NCBI GenBank assembly: GCA_000934665.2
Contig: KZ538417.1
Coordinates: 59,728-79,727, forward strand
Reading direction: 5' to 3'
Origin: Catajapyx aquilonaris
Taxonomy: Eukaryota
DNA: 20,000 nt
A program made the position numbers and the translations under genes. Positions 2 to 20,000 of this stretch are shown piece by piece (positions within the stretch are counted from its first letter, which is position 1; the number at the start of each line of letters is the position of its first letter). The notes under the pieces were generated by a model, which had not been told where the DNA came from, ran no database searches, and saw nothing but the letters and a program-made list of their open reading frames with translations.

Positions 2-120
2 TTATTAGCGGTGATTATTAGCACTTGTCGGTGGCTACTAATCGCAGATATTGTTAATAGCGGTGATTAATAGCAATTTTGAGGTGCTTCTAATCGCAGC
101 TACTTTTCAGTAGCTGTGAC
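2..120. repeat. Degenerate ~52-bp tandem repeat (about 2.3 copies visible, may continue left of the window)
   Basis: TAGCGGTGATTA occurs at 6-17 and 58-69, and TAATCGCAG at 39-47 and 91-99, both with period 52. A third partial unit TAGCTGTGA starts at 111. Confidence 0.75.
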
Positions 121-2675
121 CGATTTTTGGAGATCTCGCGTATAAAGGGGGATGCACAACAACTCGTTAACGAGTGTGAAATGTGGGTGGAGTTGGGAGG
201 AGACCAGCCAGCATTTGGCTGCAGATTAACACTGGAAGGTTGTCCCGTTAATTACGCAATAATGGGACAAACCACTTTTGGGTGGGTAGCCGCCTTTCAT
301 CGAGTTTTGGGAGGGGGAGGACATTCCTTATTCATTTGGCGGGGAAAGGCTGCAGCAGCCAGCCCACCCTACTCTCCGCTCGATTTTCCATCCGGTTCCC
401 TCATCCTAACTTGTTGGGTTAAATTGGGTCAGATCTGCCCCCTAATGAGTGAGACTGGGGCAATTTGGCCCCGGGCAAAGGCCCCCTCTCCAACTCCAGG
501 CTGCCTGATTACTCAGACATGCGTTAAGAAGACTGACTCGTTTTGGCCTCTTCCTTGCTCCTCCTATTCCGATATTCAATTTGGCTCAAACATCGCCATT
601 TTCTCGAGGACGAAACCCTTCCCACACCCACCCAACCACCCTTTGAAAATCGCCCAAAATGAAATGATGCTCGTTTTATTCGCTGATATTGGCCCCACGG
701 TTTTTTTGAGAGGAGAGTTGCGAGGTTTTCAAAGGATAGGAGGGAGGCTGGGGGGAGGATAACATGGTTATTTGCATACAACTTTGTTCAAGTCGACGAA
801 GGGCCCAACAATTGCGAGCGGTATCGGCCTGAGCCCCGAAATATACTGGAGCGAGTGAGGGTAATGGAAAAGTACTGCATTTACTTTTTGCGAGACGATC
901 AAAGGATGAAAATTTTAAAGCCCGATTGACTTCATCACTTTCTTTTCAAATATTGGCAGGTTATATGATACAATATTTGGAAAATGGAAATTTTGGCAAT
1001 TTTGGCCAATTTAGTAATATTTGCACAAGTAATAAATTTGTACTCATAATATTAGAAAATGTACAATATTAGTAAAGGTATACCTTTCCACTTCGACGTT
1101 GTTTCATCCTGGCATGATGCAACCCAAGAAACACGCTTTGCATTTTGGAATATTTGGACATTTTGCAACAGTTGGAAGTTTGCAGAGACGAAATTGTGAT
1201 TTATTTTGATAACTAAAGCTAGAGTTTGCATTTGATTGCCAGGAATGTGTGCGCTTTATGCGTGAAGCATTTCGCAATATTTTGCATGGCTCGTCCTGAA
1301 ATTTTGTGCAAATGTAGGCGATTTAACACATGCTTGCACAAGGAACTTGCATGCGGGCAAAAACTTAATACTGTGTCCTGTGTTTGTCGCCCTTGAATGC
1401 CGGCCATGAGCCATTTTGCATCCTGAAAAGTGAATTACACCACATTCCTTACCACAATTTACGAACATGTGTCCTCAGGCGTATTTTCCGCAAAAACTTT
1501 TCTTCATACACAGCACTCTTTTGTCATCTTTTTGCAAATTCGCAGGCTTGCTCTGATTACAATTTGTTTAATAACAATTAGGGTGCGGTCAATATTTGTT
1601 CTTGAAACCACCTGAGGCAAAGTAACTCATCATGTTAAAATTGGCAGCTCATGCAATTAGTTTAAAATCTTCAAGATGGACTATAAACCCAGCTGCTGAC
1701 TGAGCTCCGGCGGTGCTGCAATCCATTTACTTAAAGACAGAGTAATCTCGTGTTGGCTCATACTGCTGATCAAAGACAAGTCTGAGATGAATTTCTGGAC
1801 AGCACTATTTTGGCACAAACATATTATTTACTCTCAGAAATATCCGTAGCTCTTACTCTAATGATTTCGCGCAAAATTTTTGCGAATAAATTATAATCGG
1901 TCTGGATCCAGAAAGTGTAATTTTTTCTGCCTCCATGTTAGATACTCCTGTGCAATACTCCAGCACTAAATCAATGGAGCTGACACCGGGTGTTCATTTC
2001 GTTAAAGGAGGCTAAAGGAGCTGGCTTTTTTGTTACGAAAAGATAGCACTTTTCGCAGTTAAGAGATCAGCAGGCGTAAATCACCTGTGTAGTGTCAAGC
2101 CTGGAAATTGCAGACTTTTGAACCCTTTTCTGGCTTTATGCTAGGGTATCGGGTGTCGTCGTCCGGCGTTCAATTTGCGAACCAATTGGCGGGGAGGGGC
2201 TGCAATGTGAACGCGTGCAAATTGCCTTTTAATGGAACAATGGAGTGGAGGAAATACTTTACAATCCCCGCAGGTGCCAGGGGAAATTCCGGCTCAAATT
2301 CCGCCGAACAAACCCAGCTAGCAGCATGCAGGTCCGTGCAAATCCTTTTCCTTTTTTTTCTACAAGCTAGAGCGAGAACGGAAAGTCCGCTTGATTCAGC
2401 CTGGAGAAAAGCCCTCCCAGTCCTGTTTTCCAGAACAAGCCAAAAGCTTCAGGCTCCCACTGATGCTTTCCAGTCCCATGCTTCGATTCAAGCTGGAGAG
2501 AAAGACCTGGTTGTGTGCAAGGGGTTAAATTTCCTATATAGGGAACCCTCAGGGGACCGTTCAGACGCCCCCGCTTTCCGAGGAGACAACCACGACAGGT
2601 GTCATATCAACTGTGGAGAGGCCTCCAGACACTATTTCGCCTTCATGAATATTGCGAGAGGACTCAATTTCAGAT

Positions 2676-2759
2676 ATGACAATGCTGTGAAAGACGGCTT
2701 TTTTTCAGGCGGCCAATCAGCTTGAGCTATCCGCTCTGAGTGGCCAACAGCGTTGCCAT
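2676..2759. repeat. Nested inverted-repeat module, copy 1 (probable MITE relic)
   Basis: Outer arms are ATGACAATGCTGT (2676-2688) and ACAGCGTTGCCAT (2747-2759). Inner arms are GGCCAATCAG (2711-2720) and CTGAGTGGCC (2736-2745). It shares CTCTGAGTGGCCA..CAGyGTTGCCAT with copy 2. Confidence 0.5.
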
Positions 2760-2916
2760 TTAGAGGAAGAGCATATGCCTTGTTTTAATCACATTTTCTG
2801 TTTTCTGAGAATGTGATATCAGTATATCCTACACCCTACACAATGATTCAATAGTACAGTAGGCTACCTAGAAACTTTGGCTTGTAGGAATCACCTTGTC
2901 CAGTGTGCAACCGAGC

Positions 2917-2987
2917 TGGCAATGCAGCACTTGCACTGGCCAATCCCAAACATGTTTGCTCTCTGAGTGGCCACCGCAGTGTTGCCA
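2917..2987. repeat. Nested inverted-repeat module, copy 2 (probable MITE relic)
   Basis: The order TGGCAATGC ... TGGCCAATC ... CTCTGAGTGGCCA ... GTGTTGCCA matches the motif order and symmetry of 2676-2759. Confidence 0.5.
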
Positions 2988-3800
2988 TATTGAGCCAGCC
3001 CTCATTTCTAATTGCACGAAGAGTGTCAGCATGAGTGGTCAGGATTATCCATGCCGTTGGGCGTAAACAGGGCAGGTGTGTGGAGGATATGGGTATATCC
3101 TGACATTTGGCGCAATTCCCATGCCTTAACTAGACTGCAGAGGGGCTCGAGGATGGGTAAAAATATCTATCTCTCTCACTTTGTCGTTTTGCAACTCATC
3201 TCTGGGGAGTTTCATTTTAATCCGTGTGTCATCCATAATGGAAAGAGTTGGTATCCTGGGCAAGGGGTTCGATCGGAATGGGATGAAGGTCCGGTTTTTT
3301 GGGGGGGAACATGAAAGCACCACATGAGTTGGGATTGGTTGGAGGAGCTAAAAAAAAACGAGTATGTAGAGCGGAGATAGGGGAGTGAGAGTGTGTAGTA
3401 TATGTGTGGCGGGGGTATGTCATGCGTCACGCACCATAGCCGCATGCGAATGGAGCCCCGTGTTACTATTAAAAGAGCCTTCACAAACACGGGTACAAAG
3501 TGTGGCGGACACGACATATGCATTTGGCAACATTAACCCCCACGGTTGCTGTCATGTAAATGTTGAGATGACCGTGCACCGACGAGCCTTGTCCCGGATC
3601 AGAGTGCCCGCTTTGATTATTGTGTGTCTGATTAAATGGGCTAACCGCCGGAACAAGTTGGCCGAGCAAATGTTTTTAGAGTTGTTTTTTTTTTTACTGT
3701 ACGTGGGGGTTGCGGGTACGGAGCAATGTCCGACCTTATTTTTAGGTCGACTTGAAGGATAGAAAATTTCATCAAAATTTGGCAGCTAGTGTAAGATTGT

Positions 3801-3835
3801 TCTTAACTGAATATTTCTTTCTCTTGCAGGTAAGT
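3801..3835 (+). other. Recursive splice site (ratchet point): 3' splice site directly abutting a consensus 5' splice site
   Basis: The sequence is TCTTAACTGAATATTTCTTTCTCTTGCAG|GTAAGT. It has a branch-like CTTAAC (3802-3807), a pyrimidine tract with no intervening AG, CAG at 3827-3829 and a perfect GTAAGT at 3830-3835. Confidence 0.7.
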
Positions 3836-3900
3836 GTTGTCGGCCATAACTTCGTTGCTCAAGGGGTTCTCCATGTGGAATTTTTTTCCAATTTTGTCAG
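3830..3900 (+). other. Cryptic 71-nt recursive-splicing exon ending at a second YAG|GTAAGC junction
   Basis: It begins after the CAG acceptor at 3829 and ends at TTTTTTTCCAATTTTGTCAG|GTAAGC (donor 3901-3906). Its 71 nt are not a multiple of 3, and TAA stops occur in two of three frames. Confidence 0.6.
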
Positions 3901-6900
3901 GTAAGCAATTTTTTGACAGTACTTTTCTCGTACAGTACCAGTATTATTTAACAAAACGAAGCAGCAATTCCTCCAGTTCTCTCGAGTTACAGTCGGTATA
4001 TAGCAAAAGAGAGGTGGTGCTCATCGATTCCTGGGAATGGGAATTGGTGAAATGGTAGCTTCATCATCATCAAGCACCAATTTTCCTCTAGAGGAGCATT
4101 TGGCGAATTGGTTTCTCGATTCTCGCCTTGCACAAGTCAGCCCTGTCTTTCTCTACAAAGAGTACAAAAAAAAAGATCAGGACGAGGTAGAACTGGAGGC
4201 GGGAAAAAAATAAGTGGTAGGGAACTTTTGGGAGCAACATTTTTTTTCTCTCTTACTCTCTTCCTAAGGGCCAGAAAACAAACGGTGGGAAGGAATCGGT
4301 TTTGGTAGCAAATGTATAGCCCCTGCTTGATGAATTCATTGGGGAAATTTGCCACCAGAATGCTCATCAGATACGAGCTAAATGGATTCTCCGCAAACTC
4401 TCATTGAATTGAAGCCACGTCGACCTCAGAGAGCAAGCGAGAAGAGTCTGAAAACTCAAAAATCTGGGTCGGAGAACATGTTGTTGGGCGTGGAATAAAA
4501 AGAATGTGGAAGTGGCTCCCGAAGGCTCGTCTAAACTGTCAGTTGGGCGAGGTTGGAAAAGTGATCAATCATCTTTTCCAAGAGGAAGTGAAATGAATGC
4601 TCCTGACTTTCAGTCTGCTTTTCAACTACACGGCTTTTGCAAATTGCCAGTCGCGCCTCTCACCTTGCTAGTTTTTTTTCTTCAAATTAATTATTATGAG
4701 CAATGTTTTTTTGGGGGTTGTCTTGTCTTGTATTGTCAGAATTGTGCTGCTTTAGTGTCACATGCTTTGCCAACCACCGAGTTGTTGTCGAGTGGTATGA
4801 GAGTTTGCCGCTTCTCAAGTATATGCCTGGAGAGAGGGATTATTCCACTCCTCCAAATAGGGATTAAAAGTTTACTTTTCGACAACCACTCTTTCCTTTT
4901 AATAGGGCTAAAAGTCTAGAGAGCCCGCAACCTACACGAGGAATCAACTATTATTTTGTACCGGTACGTAAAAAATTAATATAGGGCCAAATTTTTGTCC
5001 CACTGTTAAGCAGTACCAATGTTTGGGAGTTGTTACTATACTAAGTTAGCAGTACAGTAGTGGGGCGAACGACGAAAATTCCATCCATAGGCCTACATTT
5101 TTTTATTCGCAATACTCGTTACTATGGGACAAATTGGTCAACCATCTTTTGGGTCTGTCCAATCAGGGATCTTGACGTCCTTAAAGTTGGAAAAACGAAA
5201 CCAAAGTGTATCAGATTCGGCCATTGCCAACCGGATCCTTCCTGAGTCATCATTAGACCACACAATCATTTTCACTTTAGAACTTTACGACAGCATTCTA
5301 AACGCGGATCTTTCGAAGCAGCTAGGAGGCACCAAAAAAAAGTACAGGGAGTATCCCTTTTCGATGAAGAGGTCTCATCTCTTTCCTGGATAAGAAAAGA
5401 GGTGGAAAAAAAGGTTGATTCGGTTGGTGCGAAGAGGTTGACCCGATCGTTCCTGGAGGCTTCCGGAGGGTCCGTTTCCATCACAATCGGCCGCTCAGAG
5501 ACGATTGCAAAGCGATTGGACCAGTCGACTGGAGCCACACTGTAAATAGATGGGAAGGGATGGGGAGTGGGAGACCACAAAAACCAAGCCTTGTTCAGCA
5601 GGCAGGGAGATAGAGCCATGGATCACAGATCAGAATACGACCGGATATATCAAAGAATAAGAAAAGAGAGAGAGGAATTCGTGAGGCTGAATATATTTTT
5701 TGGCTGCACCCCAAAGATCTCAACAATACTGTTAAAGTATGATTGCATTTTGATGTGATGATAATGATGGGGAATTGTTGTTAGTCTCTACTTTATTGCC
5801 AGAACCTGCGCATTGAAAAGTGAAAGCGGTTTGTATCCTTAGCGCTTTAATTACCTTATAAATCAAATTTCATAAGTCTCGCCGGAACCCTTTTTTGCAA
5901 GCGGTTTTTTTTAACTGCTCCCTCCTCCCTCAGGCTCTGAACCCATTAAAGTTCGATGCAGGCATTGACTAAAACCCGTCCTAAAATCTGGTTGGCAGAA
6001 CAGAAAACGTGTCATCGCATTATAATGAAACGGGGCGTAACGGCACACTTGCCAACCTTGTAAGTGGCAGTTGACCGTTTAAGGCGAATAAATATCACGC
6101 TTTTGTTTCCAAAATTTACGGGCCCGTCCCATCATATATATATAGCTCTCCGGTTTTATAAATGCGAGTTTGTAGCCTACCCCTCCCCCCCCCCAAAAAC
6201 CCAGCCATCTTTTAGTGTCCCCCACATTTCATGATCCATTTCTAAGCCTCGGATTCGGAGGCTGTAGAAAAGCAATTACGCGTCCCAGTGATGAAAGGAA
6301 AAGCGTCCACTGTAATCACCTCTACTGCGCCAAATATTGTCACCTCCAATGGCCACCATAACCTGCTGAAATATTTTAAAATAAAAATTATAAATAGAGT
6401 ATATTTTTCTGGTGGTGACGTCATACGTTGCGGACATAATTATTTTTCGGTTGGAAGACCCTGTGTCCCCACACGATGCAAATGGGTGTGACAGATTGGG
6501 TTACGCGGAGGTGAGGCGGATCAAAGTGATGTGCTCAAATTGCATTGGGCGTGATGGATTTTTTTTTTTTAAAGTTATTTATTTTTGCCATCACGCGTTT
6601 AAAAAATATAACTGGCAGGTCGACCGGAAAATGGGAAGTTTTTTAAACCCCCTATCCTGGGATCCTGCGTGTATGATGGAGAGGATCATACGCAAAAACG
6701 TGTGTGCCAATCAACAAAATGGAGCGCAAATTTTTTTTTTCGCTGAGGCATATTCGCACGTTCAAATTCGATGTGATCGAGTCAGTGGACGGTTGAAGCT
6801 CGCAAATTTTATTACGGTTCAGGTCAACTAACCTTGTCAAAAATTTGCACACCCTCCGAGGTGCATGTTCGCGTTCTTCGTTAAAATTAAAATCCACTAC

Positions 6901-7206: not shown

Positions 7207-9670
7207 GCTGTGGGGGGGACATGGGAACCAGTGGACCGAGAGGTCGAGCCCATGCACGCGGATACGTTTTCCACTCGTAAATCTCTCAAAAACTGCGAGG
7301 ATTCCCATCCCACTGATACAGAACTGAGCCATAAACCCTAGTTTTTTTTTGCGAAGATAGAAACTGGCCGGTGCAAAAAAAATTGTAGCAGGGTGTGTGA
7401 ATTGGGTGTTAATTTGAACGCTTGTTAAAAATCCAGGGACTTGGTTGTGAGTCAATTGGTGCGGCATCGATTCTTCTTGTCCTGTACCCCAGCAGATAAT
7501 CGTGGAGACTCTGCTTCATGTCCAGGCCTCATTCGGTGTCGGATCGTTTCGAGTTGGGGGCGTCCGAGTGCGTGCTTGCCGCTGATTGACGCTGCTCGAG
7601 CGCGACAAATTGTCGGGTCAAGTGTCGCCACAGGCGTTTGATGGGCTGGAGGACACCTGAAGAGCATGTGTCGGATGTCTTTTTTTTCGGTTTGTAAACA
7701 AACCGCTCATATTTTTTTTATACGTTGCCAAAATGTCACTCGCTCGTTAGCAACTTATTAGCAAGAGTTTGAGGAATTTCGGATGCGGATCTTTCCCTCG
7801 GGTACGGGCTCTTCGCCCAGATTATCATCATTTATGCTCCAGACTCCTGCAATTTAGGCGCAGAATCTCCGCCAATGTGATAGATGCTCTTTCGATCCCA
7901 GAGTTCTGCATTATTATATTATCAGGTACGGAATAAGATTCATTACCTGTCACGCTCATGAACCTTGCGGATTTTTGTCTGATTATTTAAATCATGAAGA
8001 CGTATAGAGTATATAGAGGGACCAACATGTGAACAAAATTATTTGTGTCAAAATGTCATAGGTTAAGGTATTATTTTATCAAAATGTGATAGCTTGATGG
8101 TACTTTTTTTCCAATATAATTTTTATTCTCTCAAATTAGACGTAACCGCTCCAATCGTCTCTGTCGTCCTTCGTTAGCCTTCGAGAATAAAATCGGATGA
8201 ATCGGATGTGTCAATCGAACAAAAGGATGGGAAACGCGCTTTCGAGGTCTAATGATCAAATTAAAAGGTGGGTTGGATCCAGTTCAGACGGAAATTCGGT
8301 TCAATTAGCAAGTCAGTCCTATATGCACGAAAAAAGTCTGAAAATCATTGCAAGTTTAGCTCTAATAAAACCGCATTAGAGTGACACATTTTTGGGATAA
8401 AAATTTACACTCTGTTCTCCACCCACTTATTGCAAACTATACGAGAGCTTATTTCACTTAGGGCTATGCGGTTTTTGCACCGATTTTTTTTTACAAACTT
8501 CCAGTACTTTTTTTGTTAGTTGCGTTGCTGGGAAGCTCTCGTGATGCAGTATAATTCGATGATGTAGGCCTAACAGGAAAAAAGGGTACATCCCATAATT
8601 GTGGGTCCCCCCTGGGCTGTCGACCACCGTTAAAACAGTTGGCAATTATGGTTTATGGTTGCGGAATTTCTCTCGCCAGGGAACAACACTGCTATTCAAC
8701 TAATAATACTAAAGGCTGCCAGTAGTTGTTTTTTGTTGGTATAGCCTCGGGCCTATTTGCATTAAATTATTCACGAGAGTGACCTGACAAAAAATGTGGG
8801 GGCCTTAATGGCACTCGGATGTTTCTTTTATAATAAATGCCTTCGGGAGGGACGTTTATTGTGCGGGGAAAAAATAATGGGTGGTCTTTCTATTGAATTG
8901 TTGTACACTCTATTTGAAAGTGCATCCGATTATTTTTACTTTTTTAAAAAATTTGCTACCGACCAACAAGGCTGCATTTCAAAGGTTATGTGGATTCAAA
9001 TTTGTGTGGACAGGGTCCGGCCTGTAGGTGTTAAAACTCGGGTTCGTAATGGACCAGTAAACGTCAGTGCAGTGAAAATTTTAGGCAACTTCTGCGAGAG
9101 CCATTGGATGCAACGCGGGACATTTACAGGCCAATCCTGACGTTCGGCGTGTGATGACCATCATATCAAAGGCTAATAGCATAACCGACAGGGAACTGGC
9201 GACGTGTATGTTGCATTTATTTTTATTGCCACGTGCTCTCCCAAAAATTATGCCCCCACATTTTGTCGAGTGTATGATGCAAAAAGCACAGTTAATGAAG
9301 ATGGCCTCTAGCAGCTGGGCGAAATAATTCGTCTTTTGTGGAGTAAATGCATTGCTTCATGAACATATGTACTATGTAACTCTGAGAAGTTTAGAATATT
9401 TAAGCACGGGCTGCAAATGTCCAGACTTCTGTTTGCTTTTGTACAGTATAACAAGCCTGCAGTTTCCATGTAGTTAAACGGTATTTTTATATTCAAAGTC
9501 TTGTGTACATAGCTTGCGGGGCGAAGTACAGTATCACAGCAGCTGGTGGTTTACCTTGGGAAAATTTGGAAACGGTCGCGGTCCTTAGATGCGTTAGACG
9601 GCCCCAAAAAATTGGCATAACGTGCTGGCCACAGGGGCAGATAAATATTCATAGTCGTCAATGTCACTAA

Positions 9671-9766
9671 GGCCTGTTTACGCCCTTACGATTTAAGCCT
9701 CGGTCGCACGATCAGACTCTTTGCGACCGACCGTCTGGTCGTGCGACCGATGCTCAAATCGTGAGG
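9671..9766. mobile_element. Palindromic MITE-like fragment (possible PIF/Harbinger-type end)
   Basis: 34-bp inverted arms at 9684-9717 and 9733-9766 (30/34 complementary) surround a 15-nt loop that holds another TGCGACCGA copy. Upstream TAA|GGCCTGTTTAC resembles a TWA target site plus a G-rich TIR. No matching right TIR was found nearby. Confidence 0.5.
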
Positions 9767-11013
9767 TTTTACATGTTGGTTTTTCGACATTTTGTGCCTC
9801 TACATTTTAGACTCGTTTCGGTCATATTTATCAAATGATCCTGCTCCCCCGAGTTTCTTACTTGCAAGAAAGCTCCCTCAGCTGACAAAGGCCCCGTTTT
9901 TGGTGGGTCCAGCAGGCACAGCTTCCGTCCCGACTAATTCACCATCACCCTGTAAAAGCCGCAAGGGTAAGTGCAGCATGGGGTTGAGTAACGAGCTGGG
10001 TCCGCAGTCCCTGCCGCGAGTCCAACCGAATGAAAAGCGACAAGTGCTTGAGCAGGTGAGAAAGTGTGTGGTGGCTGCTCAAGATATAAAGACAAGCGTA
10101 GGAGGCGCCTTAGAGAAACCCGGGGTAGGGGGGGGGGGCAGCCTTTTAGAAAGTGTTAGCTTTTGGCTTGAGGAGCAATCTGCAAGGCCAATCCGTCCTG
10201 CGGCCATGTTTCTGCTAAGTGAGGGCCAGATGTTGCCACCAACTTACAGGGACTCCTTTCTCTGGGAGTCGAGCAAGGGGCTTGGAAACCCCCCACAGAC
10301 ACATCCGGATAGACTTGTAACCTAAACTCTCTCTCTCCAAAGCGCGTCATTTGCACTGTCAGAAAGTTTTCCCTCGACAGCAACAGTTTGGCAAATATCC
10401 TCAGCTGTCGTGTGAAAGGGAAAGGGGGCAGTAATCAGCATTGTGCCAGTTGACATTTTGTGTAAATCCATTTTTTTTGGGAGGGGTGTCTGATGTCTGC
10501 CAGTGCGAATTTAAGCGTTTTTTTAAAAAGGGGGTCGGGCTGTAAGTGTTGACAAGCGCAGATTCATCTGTCTGCTGTGTGTGTATTGAAACAGGTTGCT
10601 TTGTTGAATATTTTAAAGCGGACAGTCGTTGGGCTTTTGTTGCAGCAGGCCATTTGTTATAATTTGCCTGGGCCGGATAGGGGAAGGTTGGTGATGATTA
10701 ATTTTTATTTTTTCAAAAAAAGTAGCCGCTCTGGGATAATTAAAGCTCGAGACCGTCCACACTGTGAGTTTAGTCTCATACAATGTCAGTGTGCAATGTG
10801 GATATTTTTGACGGTTTAAATAGTAAGTCATTGGCAGTAAATATTTTGCCAAAAGGCATTTTCAATCTACACTTGCACATCAATATATTCGAAATAGCAG
10901 TAATCGTTTGTTGGTTTTATATAACGATGGAGTGGGTAGATGAAGGAGGGTGGAAGGGTCGAGATGTGTACTCATCGACCTCCAGCAAACGACTGAGGAG
11001 TTCCTCCACCCAT

Positions 11014-11060
11014 TGCGCATGCGCGGATAGTCGCGGTAACAACAATATGCGGCCAATCGG
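11014..11060. promoter_or_regulatory. Motif cluster: NRF1-type TGCGCATGCGC, RFX-like half site GGTAAC, NF-Y CCAAT box
   Basis: TGCGCATGCGC at 11014-11024, GGTAAC at 11035-11040 and GGCCAATCGG at 11051-11060 lie in a locally CpG-rich patch. This is a motif match only. Confidence 0.3.
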
Positions 11061-12218
11061 AATGCACAACCACACAACGAAGGATTTTAATCTGATAGAT
11101 GCCCGATTTTTTCCCCGCAAAATATTTTGAAGCATTGCCTGATGTAGCTTCTGGGACATTCACTTCAAAAAGCGTCAAAAAGTCACTTGTTAAGTAATTA
11201 TTTTTTTGAACTAATTGACGTCGTTAATTAAACTGCCCCTAAGTTTGACGTTTCAACATTATATGCATAACTAGTTCTGCTATATTTTAGCAGACTTTCA
11301 AAACTTTTTTTTTGCTATTTTTGCCTGCCAGTCGCACAACCCACTCTATTCTCATGTACATGTCGCAGCCCTTGACGCACAAACTGTAAATACAGACAGG
11401 GTAAGCCCCGTCATAATTGCTGAAAGTTCAGTTAATAATATTTTCATGCTAAAATGACGGGTTTTTTTTTTCCCTCCCCTGCTCTTCTAATCCGCCCTTT
11501 TCACTCTAAAACCTCCAATCTCTATTGAAGTTACCGTGTAATCCGTCTCTTCAAAGCGGATTCGTATATACAGTACGAGGAAACAGGTCTCTTGTAGAGC
11601 TGCAGACTATCTTTTCTGGCTCGTTCTCTCAAAGGCAGAGTGACGTGTGCTCAACTATTTTGGCGTGAAAAGCAAGCTCGCAATTTTTTTTTTAAAGCGA
11701 GGCATGGGCTTGCTGGTGGATGAGGACTGGAAGGTATAGTACAGTGCATATGCGAGCAGTGTACTAAGCCTGTCGGCCATTGGAAAGCCATTTCCAGCAG
11801 CCAGCAAGATTGGATTCTCGCCACTAAATTGCGGGTCGGTGCCAACACTGCGAGTTGCACCAAAACAGGCATAATGAAAGGAGAGGAGGGGGAGGGGGTT
11901 GTATCGGAGGGGGTGAGCCCAAAATTCTATTGGAAAAGTTTTAAACTCTGGTCCTAAAGCGGCTTATGGTGACCACTTTCCATGCAGTACAAGATAAGGT
12001 GCGACTCGCATTGAGCGATGTGGTTGGTAATGAATGATTAATGAATTATTGATTACAATGTCTAGCGTACTATATAAGACACTACTTGTGCAGTCGTTAG
12101 ATTTTTAGCTATTGTATTATCAATGAATTATTTTACCAGCGCAACCTAGTGCTCACCCACACTCGCGCAGCTACACTGATGTGACAACAACGTTGCTAGA
12201 GTTACTCCCCAGGGGTCT

Positions 12219-12505
12219 ATGAGGTTCGTTCCAGAGCTTTTAATGTCGGCCATTTTGTTATCCTACAACCCTAAAAGTATGACCAGGTTCAGAAAGAGAC
12301 GTGACGTATGATGACGTTTCATGAAGCACCAATCAGAGGCACGATTCCTGCTGCCCAATGATCTTCAAGTATCTCATCTGATCGTGCCTCTTATTGGCGC
12401 TTGATGAAACGCCATCATACGTCACGTCCCTTTCTGAAAGTTGTTTTACTATAGCGTTGGAAATACTGAAATACAGAGCAGCACACCCACTCTAGAGAAC
12501 TTAAT
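12219..12505. mobile_element. Foldback/palindromic MITE-like element with 58-bp near-perfect inverted core
   Basis: Arms at 12288-12345 and 12381-12438 are 53/58 complementary around a 35-nt spacer. Weaker symmetry continues outward (CAACCCTAAAAGTA vs rc CAACGCTATAGTA; AGGTTCGTTCCAGAG vs rc AAGTTCTCTAGAG) at near-equal distance from the centre. Outer limits are approximate. Confidence 0.7.
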
Positions 12506-13007
12506 AGCAACTATCATTCATAATTCCAATCATGGACTTGGGGCGAACTGTGGGTCGTTTGCGTTCGTAAAAAATGCATATAGTTCAATTACTAATGAAA
12601 ATAAAATATATATTTATAAATAAACCAAAAATCATTCAGGCATAATATCTGGGTTGCAATGGCAATCAATTTTATCATGAAAATGGCTTCGATTCGTTTT
12701 GAGGAGATCCGAGAGTCGCTGAACATTTTGCGAAAGAGCAGAAAATCATCCTGTAATATTCCTCCATTGGTTGGTCTGATCTGAATGCGATTTTCCCTTC
12801 CCAGTTTATATCCACTGCCAAGTCCGGACACATTTAAAATTTGCGAAGAGCAATAACATTATTGGGAACCGTTGGCCTAACCAATCAAGCAATCCCATCT
12901 CTGAGAATGGAAAAGATGGGAAGTCCGCGAATGTGAATTTTGCTATTTACTGGCGGCACAAGGAAGCCGTAAAGGTCCTCCTTTTATGGCCGGCTTTTTT
13001 CATAGAT

Positions 13008-13041
13008 GGGGGGAGGGGGGGGGGGGGGGNNNGGGGGGGGG
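13008..13041. repeat. Poly-G tract containing a 3-nt assembly ambiguity (NNN 13030-13032)
   Basis: Read directly. The true length is uncertain because of the Ns. Confidence 0.9.
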
Positions 13042-14635
13042 AAGGCCTCTCGCTTCATTTCTTCTTCTTTTTTTATCCTTCTTTAGGGGAGGGGGGGATG
13101 ATCCAAGACCCAAGAGACTCCGTCTTGGCATCGCCTCCGCTCTATTCACTTATTCAAATAAACTTAAGAGGATTTCACGGCTAAAGCAGCAAACGGCTAC
13201 ACCCAAGTTTTATAATTCTTGTTGGCAGCGGCATTAAGACTAAGGAGAACTCAAATATTTCACCGGGGCAAAGGGAAGCCCCCTGCGGGCGTGGAAAACT
13301 ACACTGCAAACTGCTATACTTATGATCTAAGAAGAAAGAGAGAGAAAAAAAAGGGGGGCAGAAAAAGAGCAAAAATCTGTGTGGCCTGCGAGAGGGGAAA
13401 AAAATCCAGAAGAAAAATCTGTAATATGGTTCAGCTGGAGTGAGCCGAAAAATTATAACCGCCCATTGTTATGGGAGACACTACTTGTTGTTTATGTGAG
13501 CAGTTGAGCAATGGTCACCAATTTTCCATGGCTATTAACAGATTGCAAGAGCCTGTTTTTGAGTGTTTTTTTTGCTTCAAATAATTGTGTGAGCCTAGTG
13601 TGACACGCTTCTGATGGCAGCCCAATAGCGCGAGGCACAATAATGGCATTACCCCTCCAACAATAGCAGCGCAAACCGTTTATAAAACCGGTTGGAGCTG
13701 CAGTATTAATCTATTAACTAATTGAGGGCAAACGTGAGCCCGATAAATTGTATCGAGCACTCCGATATATATATAGCAATGCTGATCAAAGCGACGATCC
13801 TGTCTCATGAAACATTAGGGTATATGACATTATTATTTGCAACCCCTGACAGCAGTAGTGAAGAAACTATTTTTAATTAATTAATCTGTCAATTAATATC
13901 ATAAGTTCATTCGTGTCGGTTTCACAGAAAGACTTTATGTTTGTTCCTTCCCGAGAGCCATTTAGAGTTGAATCTGCAGGCAATTAGTCCCCGGACGGAG
14001 ACATCCTCAAGCCAGCTAATAATCATTATTGGATTCATTAGTGACGAATTTGGGCGCCTTTGACAAGCAAGGCAGCCCGAGTCCTCCGGATTCCGCATCC
14101 GGAAGGCTGCTCACGAGCCAAGGTCGGCACTTGACTCCGACAAAGCCTCCACTTTTCCATCACCTCGCCGCTATTAATCCTAATCTGGGGCGCAATGTTT
14201 GATCATTACCCAGTCCCCAAATTGCAGGAAGGAAGGGGGGGAGGGCCTTCTTCTCAATTAAGCCTAAAGGGATCGGGGCTGACTTTTGGGTTCCTGAGAA
14301 AGGATCTTCAGGACATTTAGTGCGTGTGACACCTTGACTTTTGGATGCTCCCAAGAGGATCTGTTCCCCCCCATCTTATGTGGGGCCTGCTTCAAACTCG
14401 TAAAACACACCCAAATCTAATCTCCTACATCTAATCTGATGTGGCCCTAACGACTGCTTTACTTTCAGGGATGGCCTAATAAAAGCCTTTTATTTCCAAC
14501 CCCTAGCCGCTGGCTAATGGAAATTCAGCCCTCATCCGGGAAAAGTTTAAGGTCCGGAATTTCCAATTGTCTCTCACCTCTGCGCAAGATCTAGTCGTCT
14601 CTATTGTCAAATTACAGCTCAATGTGCACTCTGGA

Positions 14636-14667: not shown

Positions 14668-14936
14668 TCATCGTGGACAAACAGAGGCCTGCTCTATATG
14701 CGATGAGTATATGTGTATGGATCCTCCCAGCATCCCATGGACCAAGCCCAGCTTTGAGCTTTGAGCTGAGACACGCACTGTGGCTTTCTGTTTACCTCTT
14801 TCCCCTGGACCCCCTTAGCCGTGGGAATGCTGCTTCCAAGCCTTGTAATCAATACAAGGCTTTTCCCTACCCCATCCCCTGGCTTGCATTCGAGTCATGC
14901 GGGGGATAGGAAGCTTGTATCGGGCCTGCATTGAAA

Positions 14937-14951
14937 GTGTGTGTGTGTGTG
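14937..14951 (+). repeat. (GT)7 microsatellite
   Basis: Read directly. Confidence 0.9.
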
Positions 14952-15003
14952 CGACGAACTAACCTATACATTACACAAGAAGACATTCATATTACATAAT
15001 ACA

Positions 15004-15527
15004 ACTTACATTAATAAAGCAGAAAGTTTGTCTGTTTGTGTATGTCCGGGCTACCTAACTAAGACTAAGAATGATAAAACTTGCACATTAATGGCTTATA
15101 CAGCTGACACAGGGAAATGTTTTAAAGTCTGAATACCTCATATTTCGGATATTTTTCCCATCAAATCAGACTACTAATTCCCTTATTCTGTCTGTCTGCT
15201 TATATGATGCCCCTGTTGACTCATCGCCTACAGCTGGCCTACAGGTAGTAGTTACCATAGCTTTCACTTTCCCCGTTCAACAATTAGAGGTCATATAGCG
15301 GCCAGATAGGGTGGGACCCTATGGAGGCGAGACACGTACTGGTGGGCTTTGTCCTAGGGGTGACTCATCACCAACGTGCATGTAGTACTAATTTTTCCCT
15401 GAGAATGGCAGGAGTGTGCAGAGGGACAGCCTGTGCGCCAACTGGTAGTGGCTTATCGTACTATGTCCAAGTTGTGGGGGATGGGTCAGGCAGTGTTGCC
15501 AAAATTTGGCAACGGGTCCGCTACTAG
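15004..15527 (+). mobile_element. Non-autonomous Helitron-like (rolling-circle) element, ~520 bp
   Basis: At the 3' end, the hairpin GTTGCCAAA-A-TTTGGCAAC (15495-15513) is followed by 10 nt, CTAG (15524-15527) and T. The 5' end (a)CTTACATTAATAAAGCAGAAAGTTTGTCTGTTTGTGTATGTCC resembles the TC...ATAAA..GAAAGTTTGT(N-TGT)n start of non-autonomous invertebrate Helitrons, but the terminal TC reads AC. No TSD, TIR or transposase ORF is present. Confidence 0.7.
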
Positions 15528-16012
15528 TATGCACTATAGAGAAAAGAGCTAAAGGCCAGATGTTGGTTATGCAGGGTTCGTCCGTCATAAGCGCTGGATG
15601 ATGCGTGCGGTAGATAAAAATCCAATATCGGAGCAGCCTTTGGCCGATACACGTCTGTTAGCGCGGGTTATCAAACCCTTTGTCTTGGTCCCCGTCGACC
15701 CAAAGGCAGGGGGGCCCCCTCGGTTGAAAGAAAGGAAAAAAAAAAATACACCATAAGTTTCGAGTTCCCTCCGCCCTTTTCCTCCCCCCCCCCCCCTCCA
15801 AGTCTCCCTTGGCTTTAAATGAGAATGTGACTCTCCATCCGATTTCCAAGACACGTAGCCCGGAAATTGACGGCCATCAATTCCGCCCAGTTGATCGCGA
15901 GAAGCGGTGAAATCTCAGATTGGAGTCGAGTCCGCACGCAGGCACCCGGATCACTGCCTGGCGATCCGGACTGCCAAGCTCCATTCTCATTTCCAACCCT
16001 TCCCTATAATAC

Positions 16013-16028: not shown

Positions 16029-17129
16029 CACTCATACTACATATAGACGAATCTATACGATTTTTTTAAAACAAAATAATTCCGGATTGGTGCAATTTTC
16101 TAATTAAGTGTACGTCACTACTGCTTTTCATTTGCACGTTAATTGCTGAATATTTGCATAATGTGAAAGAGGATATAGTAAGGGAGGGGAAAAAAAAAGT
16201 AATTTGGCGGCGTGCTTCATGAAAAGTGCAAGTACTTGGGCTTGTAATCAGCGGAAGGAAGTGTGTAAAGCATCGCTTTAATAAGCAAGGCGACGTCCTC
16301 TGCCAGCCTGCAATAGCCTATCCGGAGGAGCCAATTTCTTAGAATCACGGCACCAGGGGTTAATAAGAAGGCCAACTTGCAGTACAGTACAGCTCAGACG
16401 AAATTGTTAGCACCAGCAAAGATTGCGAGTAATTACACTAGTTGCGAGTAGTTCATACACATCAATCAATTGAACTCTTCAGGGGGGGGAAAAGCACACA
16501 GCGGAACAACTTTTTTTTTAAATTGAGTAACACGAGGGGCTTATATGTTCCAAAATCCGGAATTAACAACTAAAATCATAATGTAGGCTATAAACATGAT
16601 GGTCCTCGTTTAATTGGGTAAACGTCGCGAACTATTTAAAACGAGTAATTCATGTTACCAACCGCCATTCAGTGCCATTAATATCAACATGGGCATCACG
16701 AGTGCAATTATATCACTTAATTAATCATCAAGTACTAATGTTACAGGGTGAAAATCTGTTAATTCCGGGGTTTAATGTAGCACTGGGAGAGTGGACTGTC
16801 ACATTGTACACACAAACACAGCAATGAGCGTCTGATTCAATCTGCTTGTACATGTTTTATAAATTAATTGGGTTTGAGTTGTGTTATTAAATAATATTCC
16901 AATATTTGCTATACGAAACCTGACAACACTGCCAAACGGTTAGGATTGAATCTGGATATATCGGCTGATTTCTTTGGTACTGACTAATTTACGGGTGGGC
17001 TAATTTTGCATCTTTGTGGATAGTTTCATTAATAAATAATAAATAAATATTCGTTGCAAAAGTGTCGATTTGGCTCTAACAAACATACTTTTCCCCTGTC
17101 CCTTTAAGTATGTTATATCCGTAGTCAAC

Positions 17130-17161
17130 TGCAGTACCAACTGTCTCACATAGATGGCGCA
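17130..17161 (+). promoter_or_regulatory. Bipartite CTCF-like binding site (upstream motif + AGATGGCGC core), copy 2
   Basis: In TGCAGTACC-aactg-TCTCACATAGATGGCGCA, TGCAGTACC matches the CTCF upstream (ZF9-11) motif at the 5-bp spacer and TAGATGGCGC matches the core. Confidence 0.6.
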
Positions 17162-19065
17162 CACTACTGATGACTCACCGCGGACAAAGGACCTGAATGA
17201 CCTTATGCTGCATTTTTTTAACAAACTGTGACCTCTAGGCCACAAAAGGTCACGGTTAATTTGTAATTCATTGCGATCCGGCGGAAGTGGCCTGCAAAAT
17301 GGAGTGTAGCACCCGGAGGCTCATATATTTCTGGTGCTGGCTGGTTGGAGTTGGGGGGTTGGGTTGGGAAAGGTGTGGGGGGTGGAGGAGAAGCATTAGG
17401 GAATAGGGAAATAGCATTACACACGGGAGGAAAAGCAGGCCTCGTGTTCCCCGCCATTCAAGTGATGCTTTATGGCCGTCACGCTCATTTTTATTAGCCT
17501 AGAGTGGAACAAGCTGGATGAAAATGGAATATTTTTTTTTCTTCTTGGTCTGCTGTGTGTGTGTACGGAAAAGTCTGCGGTGCGCGTGTAAAAAGCTATA
17601 GTTGCGGAATGTAAGAAAAAATGTGTGACGTCAGGTTGACACAATAAAATGCAGAAATATTTATGTACATTTATCATAAAAAATATGAACATTTCACGCC
17701 ACATAGCATCAGTTTCAGCACTATCAGTAGTCCAGAAGTTGGTTATGTAATCCGGACAAACCCACAAACTTTCCTGTTTATACAGTACTATTATAAGATT
17801 GTGATTATATGCGTTCCACTGCCTTGTTTTTAGTGCGGCACTTGCGAAATCGAGTTTGGAATTGACCAATTGGGTATTAAATGCAGGTCTCTCTCTTTCT
17901 TTCTTTTTTGTACAGTCGTCTTGAGCTTGTCCTGTGGAGAAATGTAGCTCTGAGGCGGGTTTAGGAGCCAGACAAATAAATTTAGTTCCGTCCGATAAGG
18001 CAGGAGTTATTGGACTTGGGACTGACATTGTTTGCAAGGGACTATCTTTATTGCCTGGCGATAGGCAACTAGGAATATGTCGCTAAGCTTAGCTCGGTTA
18101 GCCGGCAGCAGGGCTTCTCTTTTTCTCTGGGAAAGTTGTAAGACCGTCAGTGATTCGTCAACTGCAACTGCCAATATACAGTACAATGCAAAACGGAAAA
18201 TATTTAGTCGAAAAATAATTACGACCAAGATTTTTTTTGTGTAAGTTCGTAAGAGCAATATTTGCAGCACTGATTATAATTCACTAATATAATAGGGCAG
18301 CTCTTTTCAATAGCCTCGGTCACTATAGAACTCTTCGTAAACACAATTTTCCGAAAAATAATAGCCGACTATGTACCGCAGATGAACATGTGATTAGATG
18401 CTCAAACTTGGCTTTGAGGTGGGATGGCAAACATATTTTTTTTTCATCCTTAAAAAAAAAAAACACGGACGAAATTCGCTAATGAAGTCCGGTAATTACT
18501 CAAAGCAAGAGTCGTTAGTATGGAAATTTCTGTGTTTCACCGGGAACGATCCTTTTGATAATGGTTGATAAAAAAAGTTGGACGGAAAAGTTTTTTTTGT
18601 TTTTTTTTTGGGGGGGGGAGGGTAAAAAACAGAGCAATGCTCATTACCAGCTACCGGGCGCCTTTGATATTTCATTTTTGGGTCTTTCAACACTGCCTGA
18701 AGCTTGGCTTGTAGGTAAATTCAGCGGACATTAACCGCAATAATTTTGCAGGTTAAAAAACACAGCTTGAATGCGGCACAATTATTTTTCCTGTAGGAAC
18801 TACTACCCGTTTAGCTTTACCATTTTTGACTTACTGCTGAGAATTGATTGTATGCATTCCAAATGATCACAAAATGTTGTGCGAATTCTGCGCATTTCTC
18901 GATTTATAGTCGTCAACGTTCTGAAAAATTGTTGTGAAAAAAAATATGGGAAGAGGAAGCGTGTTTGGCGATTCGGAAGCACCCTGAGGAAAACCTGCGA
19001 AGGAATTTTCTTTGATCTCTTCCTCTTCGGGTCCTGGAATCAACCTGGCGGAAGAGTATGCGTCT

Positions 19066-19110
19066 CCGATCCTTTCCGAACCCCACCGAACTGAACCGAA
19101 CCGTGCCAAA
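19066..19110. repeat. Degenerate pentamer array (CCGAA)9
   Basis: The units ccgat ccttt ccgaa cccca ccgaa ctgaa ccgaa ccgtg ccaaa keep strict 5-bp phase. Confidence 0.6.
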
Positions 19111-20000
19111 GCCTGCATGAATCAGCCCACAATATTTTGGAGTCCACATTTTAGGGTGAAAAGCTGGCCCGACGGATCGATCCCCAGCAAGAGAGAAGAA
19201 GAAGAGTCGACAAGTGACAAATAAGTTTTCCTTATCCAGGCACGTGGCAATAGGAAGGAAAGGTCCGGCTTGGGCTTGGGGGAAAAGCGGAGGCCATTTG
19301 CATGCTTAGTTGCATTTCCGTTTATCTCCTTCCGGGCTCTGAATAAGGCTTGGCTCTTGCTTCGTCTGGCGAGGGAAAGGAGCCTTGATTCCGGGTCCAA
19401 ATTACGCGTGCAATAGGGGCTAATAATCACTCTGCCCCGGAGGCAAAGAGGGTACAAAGCGAGCAATTTCGTTCCATATATTGTGCAATTCTAGTGTGAG
19501 AGAACGTGGCCATATTGTTTTCGAATCTGCGCCGTTCAAATCGATACATCTTTCCCTAAACTGTCATGGCTGCCACTCATTGATCTGGCAACATGATAAT
19601 CGTAATGTTTGCAGTTTTGTAAGCTTACAGCAATTGGCCGGCAGTAATTTTCCATTGCACTGTGAGCATATTGTTCAGCATGTTGTCGACAATCCAATTT
19701 TTGTGGTACCGTAATTACAATAATGTTTTGCGAAAAATGTCATACTGCATTTTATCTCGTAATGAATTTGATCGATCCGCATTCCAAGTCTTAGTGTGAA
19801 TTTGAGTGAATCCTGATCGTAATTGCACATGTCCCGCTAGAAATTCACGCACGGTTTGACCCGCATGAAAGGTGATGAACAGCACACTCGCCAGTGGGCC
19901 ATTCCAGATTTTTTTTTTTTTCAAATTCATTACTTTCGGTGGAAAGACGCGTCTCCAACGTGCAGCCTGATTGCGTCCTTTCATAAAAATGAACCTGGAC

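Follow-up and report, generated by a model that had tools for sequence, protein, structure and literature searches.

Is the juxtaposed splice acceptor and donor at positions 3829/3830 a point from which a long intron could be removed in steps, or is it an unused look-alike, the end of an ordinary exon, or the start of an exon that is kept in some transcripts? The question was raised by the initial annotation of the stretch of DNA analysed here (20,000 nt, called the window throughout), in which a ratchet-like motif had been described that consists of a branch-like CTTAAC, an AG-free tract and CAG/GTAAGT. A reading of the sequence bears this motif out on the plus strand, with no AG present between 3807 and 3827. 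The same reading brought up a feature that was absent from the annotation, namely a second composite, CAG/GTAAGC, which lies 71 nt downstream on the plus strand and has its junction at 3900/3901. The elements of both sites and of the unit between them are collected in Table 1. The observation is confirmed, and its interpretation as recursive splicing is partly supported by the sequence criteria considered below.

Table 1. Elements of the two acceptor-donor sites and of the unit that they delimit, in positions of the window
Feature	Positions	Strand	Description
Branch-point-like CTTAAC	3802-3807	+	The second A, at 3806, is the candidate branch point and lies 23 nt upstream of the G at 3829; direct reading
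AG-free pyrimidine-rich tract	3808-3826	+	13/18 pyrimidines; unbroken 12-nt run at 3815-3826; TT at -6/-5 corresponds to 3824-3825
Acceptor-donor core CAG/GTAAGT	3827-3835	+	CAG at 3827-3829, GTAAGT at 3830-3835; junction 3829/3830
Candidate 71-nt recursive exon (RS-exon)	3830-3900	+	Starts with GTAAGT; length not a multiple of three; stops in 2/3 frames
Second pyrimidine-rich tract	3881-3897	+	T-rich, 14/18 pyrimidines, no AG; within the 3' portion of the 71-nt unit
Downstream 5' splice site CAG/GTAAGC	3898-3906	+	8/9 consensus bases; candidate RS-exon donor; itself an acceptor-donor composite

Expectation by chance

The core at 3829/3830 agrees with the donor consensus at 9/9 bases, and its site received the top composite score among the 97 AGGT sites found on both strands. 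When a composite was defined as AG/GTRAGT placed after at least 13 pyrimidines in 18 positions without AG, scanning of both strands returned a single instance in the 20-kb window. The core also fits the consensus published for ratchet points, (Y)nNCAG/GTAAGT, which speaks for the recursive reading (PMC2773006). A YTNAY element with its A located 18-40 nt upstream is found at 34.5% of all window positions, and the CTTAAC therefore adds almost no weight. A qualifying tract precedes 5.8% of plus-strand positions, and of 2584 such tracts 507 (19.6%) carry TT at -6/-5. This dinucleotide is found at the first site and not at the second.

Shuffled sequences were used as a measure of chance. The 8-mer core, AGGTAAGT, occurs once in the window and at least once in 79 of 200 shuffles, and YAGGTRAGT, which also has one occurrence, was present at least once in 62 of 200; taken alone, the 8-mer core is in no excess over chance. 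The full composite arose in 88 of 2000 dinucleotide shuffles of the whole window. When the shuffling was done block-wise, in blocks of 250 nt that preserve the local composition, it arose in 51 of 1500, and this number fell to 15 of 1500 with TT at -6/-5 added; these figures are approximate, as shuffles miss some properties of real DNA. The lone motif is to be expected in roughly 1 of 25 windows of 20 kb, and meeting it in the course of a large scan is unremarkable. On average the shuffles gave 0.036-0.045 sites in 40 kb of strand, which is in agreement with the background published for the antisense strand of long introns, where about 0.07-0.12 such sites were counted per 100 kb (PMC2773006).

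The second site

The locus rises above chance through the second site, which lies 71 nt downstream. By the simple composite score this site is second-best among the same 97 AGGT sites. Donors with at least 7/9 consensus bases number 13 on the plus strand and 9 on the minus strand, none of the latter reaching 8, and the only donors on either strand that share at least 8/9 bases with CAGGTAAGT are those at 3829/3830 and 3900/3901. Two tract-plus-AG/GTRAG sites no more than 300 nt apart on one strand were obtained in 1 of 2000 whole-window shuffles and in 1 of 1500 block-wise shuffles. Within the unit that the two junctions delimit, the third frame has no stop and forms part of an open frame of 52 codons extending over 3746-3901. 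Judged from the sequence, the downstream donor would raise by a large factor the odds that 3830-3900 is a real exon-like splicing unit. It does not separate a recursive exon that is skipped from a poison exon that is included, and it leaves some probability to an ordinary exon with its end at 3829 and an alternative donor.

These counts bear directly on the reading in which the locus is a pseudo-exon, a look-alike formed by chance or neutral sites in intergenic DNA, on the antisense strand or within an intron, and never productively spliced. Such a reading would be at ease with an 8-mer core that recurs in the proportion of shuffles given above, and with a composite present in 3.4-4.4% of shuffled windows, a rate that makes it frequent once many windows are scanned. 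Functionless sites do exist, as is indicated by the published antisense and intergenic background of about 0.1 per 100 kb (PMC2773006), and the local T-richness of the region (T-A skew of 0.17 at 3501-4000) makes tracts cheaper. The pairing of the sites is harder to accommodate, given the single shuffle in each series that placed two of them so close on the same strand, as is the fact that the only two donors with at least 8/9 consensus bases in 40 kb of strand are this very pair. The TT at -6/-5 contributes an extra factor of about 5 against chance, from its background of 19.6%. Weighing both sides, the reading in which the two sites are unused is considered rather unlikely, without being negligible.

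A candidate splicing route

The reading that is tentatively preferred is that of a Drosophila-type intronic ratchet point with an RS-exon on a plus-strand transcript, and its likelihood is placed a little short of even. What we infer comprises transcription of the plus strand, a position inside a long intron and each of the splicing steps. The 71-nt unit would be recognised as an exon, with a 3' splice site composed of CTTAAC, the tract with TT at -6/-5 and CAG, and with CAG/GTAAGC at 3900/3901 as its 5' splice site. An upstream exon, located outside the window, would then be ligated to 3830, while the first intron segment would leave as a lariat. The end of the upstream exon followed by GTAAGT would rebuild a strong 5' splice site, which would have to compete with the GTAAGC at 3901. 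Should the rebuilt site win, the 71 nt and the remaining intron would be removed together and the mRNA would bear no trace of the event; should it lose, a frame-breaking exon of 71 nt would be included.

A strong downstream 5' splice site and TT at -6/-5 are both expected under a recursive-splicing model, and both predictions hold. What characterises fly ratchet points, that is, the tract/CAG/GTAAGT core, the TT at -6/-5 and a 5' splice site within 100 nt downstream, is found at this locus. The initial annotation had regarded the juxtaposed sites as a signature of recursive splicing; this signature stands and has been extended by the downstream donor at 71 nt, the out-of-frame unit and the TT at -6/-5, and the functional part of the claim is a proposal. 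The agreement with the sequence criteria, three of which were absent from that annotation, constitutes the main argument for the recursive reading.

Donor competition appears to favour the recursive reading mildly. The intronic part of the candidate regenerated donor agrees with GTAAGT at 6/6 bases and that of the downstream donor at 5/6, a difference whose direction favours skipping of the 71-nt unit. Skipping would not be assured, however, since the strength of the regenerated donor is set by the last bases of the upstream exon and the downstream donor has a full CAG.

If the downstream donor prevailed, 3830-3900 could be a cassette exon that some transcripts retain without re-splicing at its 5' end. 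Its inclusion would break the frame and lead to decay, as in a poison exon, or the unit would act as a decoy that engages splice sites and holds the intron. Strong splice sites at both ends, a length of 71 nt and stops in 2/3 frames are all compatible with such a role, the full CAG of the downstream donor could win the competition, and both expressed RS-exons and poison exons are present in the literature (PMC8605326; PMC6224609). Against this, the perfect GTAAGT at the start of the unit would rebuild a strong donor on most exon ends, and in published mutagenesis a stronger regenerated donor led to skipping (PMC8605326; PMC6224609). Pure inclusion without re-splicing is on these grounds the less likely outcome, and a role as poison or decoy exon is regarded as distinctly improbable.

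Under the preferred recursive reading, the tract at 3881-3897 is more than a simple RS-exon model requires. With this tract the downstream donor is also a composite, and it is possible, if on balance doubtful, that a working ratchet with a cryptic 71-nt recursive exon, probably from a non-vertebrate animal, is built here as a tandem of two ratchets spaced by 71 nt. The upstream exon could then be joined at either AG, with a donor being rebuilt in each case. If true, and speculatively, tandem ratchets would provide a built-in fallback in the removal of a long intron.

Coding potential and base composition around the site

The window contains 139 stop-to-stop frames of at least 55 aa, of which 137 were scanned against Pfam, the 2 frames with N being excluded. 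None of the 137 passed the curated cut-off, and the 8 weak matches below it had E values of 0.005-0.074, in accordance with the earlier statement that no recognisable coding exon is present.

The window has 44% G+C and a CpG observed/expected ratio of 0.79. On the plus strand, G exceeds C and T exceeds A in each of the four 5-kb quarters, and runs of six or more nucleotides comprise 49 T-runs and 27 A-runs. The sense strands of animal introns tend to have more G than C and more T than A, and the strand asymmetry, which is weak, would weakly fit transcription of the plus strand. Just upstream of the site the GC skew reaches +0.27 to +0.28 (3001-3750), and the CpG observed/expected ratio is about 1.0 at 3251-4000 vs 0.39-0.46 at 2501-3250. 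From this composition, the patch at 3001-4000 could be an unmethylated promoter-like region.

A third AG/GT junction is located at 3745/3746, with a moderate tract (12/18 pyrimidines) and a poor donor half; together with the donor at 3829, it would delimit an open unit of 84 nt. Both the patch and this junction are relevant to the possibility that CAG/GTAAGT does no more than serve an ordinary exon ending at 3829 as its 5' splice site, with the donor at 3901 being alternative or cryptic and the tract coincidental. The exon could be a non-coding first exon derived from the upstream patch, whose CpG ratio and GC skew resemble those of an unmethylated promoter with a rightward direction, or an internal one, for example 3746-3829, for which the acceptor-like 3745/3746 would give a length that is a multiple of three and one open frame. 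The plus strand, however, has 50 acceptor-like sites comparable to that at 3745, or about one per 400 nt, and at such a frequency the one at 3745 is no evidence. No relative of the 52-aa frame at 3746-3901 was found at E <=0.001 when 1.84 billion representative proteins were searched, though short exons may be missed in this way, and no core promoter element was identified on reading the sequence by eye. An AG-free tract would also have to precede both donors by coincidence, at about 5.8% each. This possibility is held to be improbable.

RNA searches, copy number and variation

Rfam returned no match at gathering score over the window, and at E <=1 no family covers the site. The sole match within 3400-4300 was MIR2275 (4185-4269), which at 21.8 bits vs a gathering score of 60.5 and with an E value of 0.29 is at chance level. 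ARAGORN found no tRNA in the window, and the RNA fold of 3780-3930 was no better than that of shuffles (z of 0.09). The motif is the complement of the 5' end of U1. A U1-like element on the minus strand was also considered as its source and was rejected for lack of an Rfam match.

A repeat origin of the site was likewise rejected, the depth being equal to that of the single-copy flanks and no repeat family of the window covering the site. In DNA contigs from three runs of one sample, the word depth at the site is 22-35, equal to the flanks, which indicates a single copy. Among the DNA contigs, no variants are listed at 3801-3906. Four DNA runs, all of a single sample and study, contain 94-98% of the words of the window. 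A fifth run from the same species, of unspecified kind, contains next to no words, and its 13 short pieces fall on repeats and away from the site; its near-absence is uninformative on expression in either direction. An exact 22-nt pattern across the ratchet core had no match in metagenome contigs.

Elsewhere in the window the copy number is higher. The summed word depth reaches about 2400-3850 in the bin at 15342-16008, vs 15-35 in single-copy parts, and 160-1100 in the bins at 12007-12673, 16676-17342, 668-1334, 9339-10005, 14675-15341 and 10673-11339. Many contig breaks at 15243 and at 15528-15530 suggest an element of about 285 bp (15243-15530). Inverted repeats are found in 12276-12450 (70-nt arms, 86% complementarity, 35-nt spacer) and at 9684-9766 (34-nt arms, 88% complementarity, 15-nt spacer) and, as both are within high-copy bins, these hairpin-like repeats are probably small foldback or MITE-like elements. 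The start of the window (2-105) carries a 52-nt unit in two tandem copies with 77% identity. A gap of three N at 13030-13032 is situated between G-rich runs, accompanied by a 27-nt direct repeat 76 nt apart (12995-13097), and this segment probably marks where low-complexity sequence was joined during assembly.

Runs from the same sample also differ in places. One run carries seven substitutions at 4478-4760, and at 18842-19615 the runs are separated by numerous substitutions and short indels. Between 708 and 4477 no between-run differences are listed. The two clusters look like a second haplotype.

Significance

Recursive splicing is well known in flies and vertebrates, and a confirmed site at this locus would join a known kind. 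If used, the site would represent a further case of stepwise long-intron removal outside these two well-studied groups, with the full build of a recursive exon, and would support the view that the mechanism is old and widespread in animals. This view had already been suggested by the motif enrichment described in 2009 for insects and sea urchin (PMC2773006), and a single candidate site therefore adds little to it. A feature that is apparently undescribed, speculatively and within a limited comparison with the accessible literature, is an RS-exon donor that is itself a full acceptor-donor composite. The practical value of the locus lies in the precise and cheap targets that it offers, namely the junction 3829/3830, the donor at 3901 and the 71-nt unit.

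Comparison with known systems

The systems compared here are those described in the accessible parts of the sources cited. In rat tropomyosin, a zero-length exon, or pseudo-exon, was reported by Grellscheid and Smith (2006, as described in PMC2773006), and this arrangement is thought to remove a non-productive exon, not to subdivide a long intron (PMC2773006).

Among invertebrates, Shepard and others described that the motif is enriched on the sense strand of long introns in mosquito, bee, beetle and sea urchin (Shepard et al., 2009; PMC2773006). In the invertebrates studied, sites on the sense strand of long introns reached 4 to >20 times background, and the corresponding values for vertebrates were 0.9-1.5 (PMC2773006). 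In locust, a site predicted in an intron of NPF1 obtained partial experimental support through a U2AF65 pull-down (PMC8892266). In light of these reports, the proposal in the initial annotation that recursive splicing could here be extended to a new lineage is overstated. Both studies dealt, as in the present case, with motif-based candidates in non-model animals; they had gene models that give strand and intron size, whereas here a single site is proposed from sequence alone (PMC2773006; PMC8892266).

Vertebrate recursive exons are mostly annotated and are retained in the mRNA through the exon junction complex (Sibley, 2015; Blazquez, 2018; PMC6224609), and only about ten efficient cryptic intronic recursive sites were described in humans (PMC6224609). 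The candidate shares with them the logic of exon definition, in which a partial donor at the start of the exon rebuilds a 5' splice site on ligation. It also shares the logic of the outcome, which is decided by competition with the downstream donor of the exon itself. What sets it apart is the CpG observed/expected ratio of 0.79, which we take to argue against a vertebrate source.

The closest likeness is with the intronic ratchet points of Drosophila, for which Ubx, kuz and Bx are known cases (Hatton, 1998; Burnette, 2005; Duff, 2015; Joseph, 2018; cited in PMC8605326 and bioRxiv 10.1101/006163). These points are not truly zero-length and need a cryptic RS-exon of short length (about 50 nt) that is flanked downstream by a donor, shows poor conservation in its interior and is "generally out of frame", and whose skipping requires that the regenerated donor outcompete the downstream donor (PMC8605326). 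TT at -5/-6 was found in 196 of 197 Drosophila ratchet points vs 43.76% of all introns (bioRxiv 10.1101/006163). The locus described here resembles them in its juxtaposed acceptor and donor, in the TT at -6/-5, in an out-of-frame unit that bears stops, and in having no coding sequence nearby. It differs in that its downstream donor is preceded by a tract and forms a second composite, and in being a candidate read from its nucleotide sequence. In the majority of fly ratchet points a 5' splice site follows <100 nt downstream (PMC6224609), and with a downstream donor at +71 nt, compared with about 50 or <100 nt in Drosophila, the candidate keeps to the spacing of the fly system.
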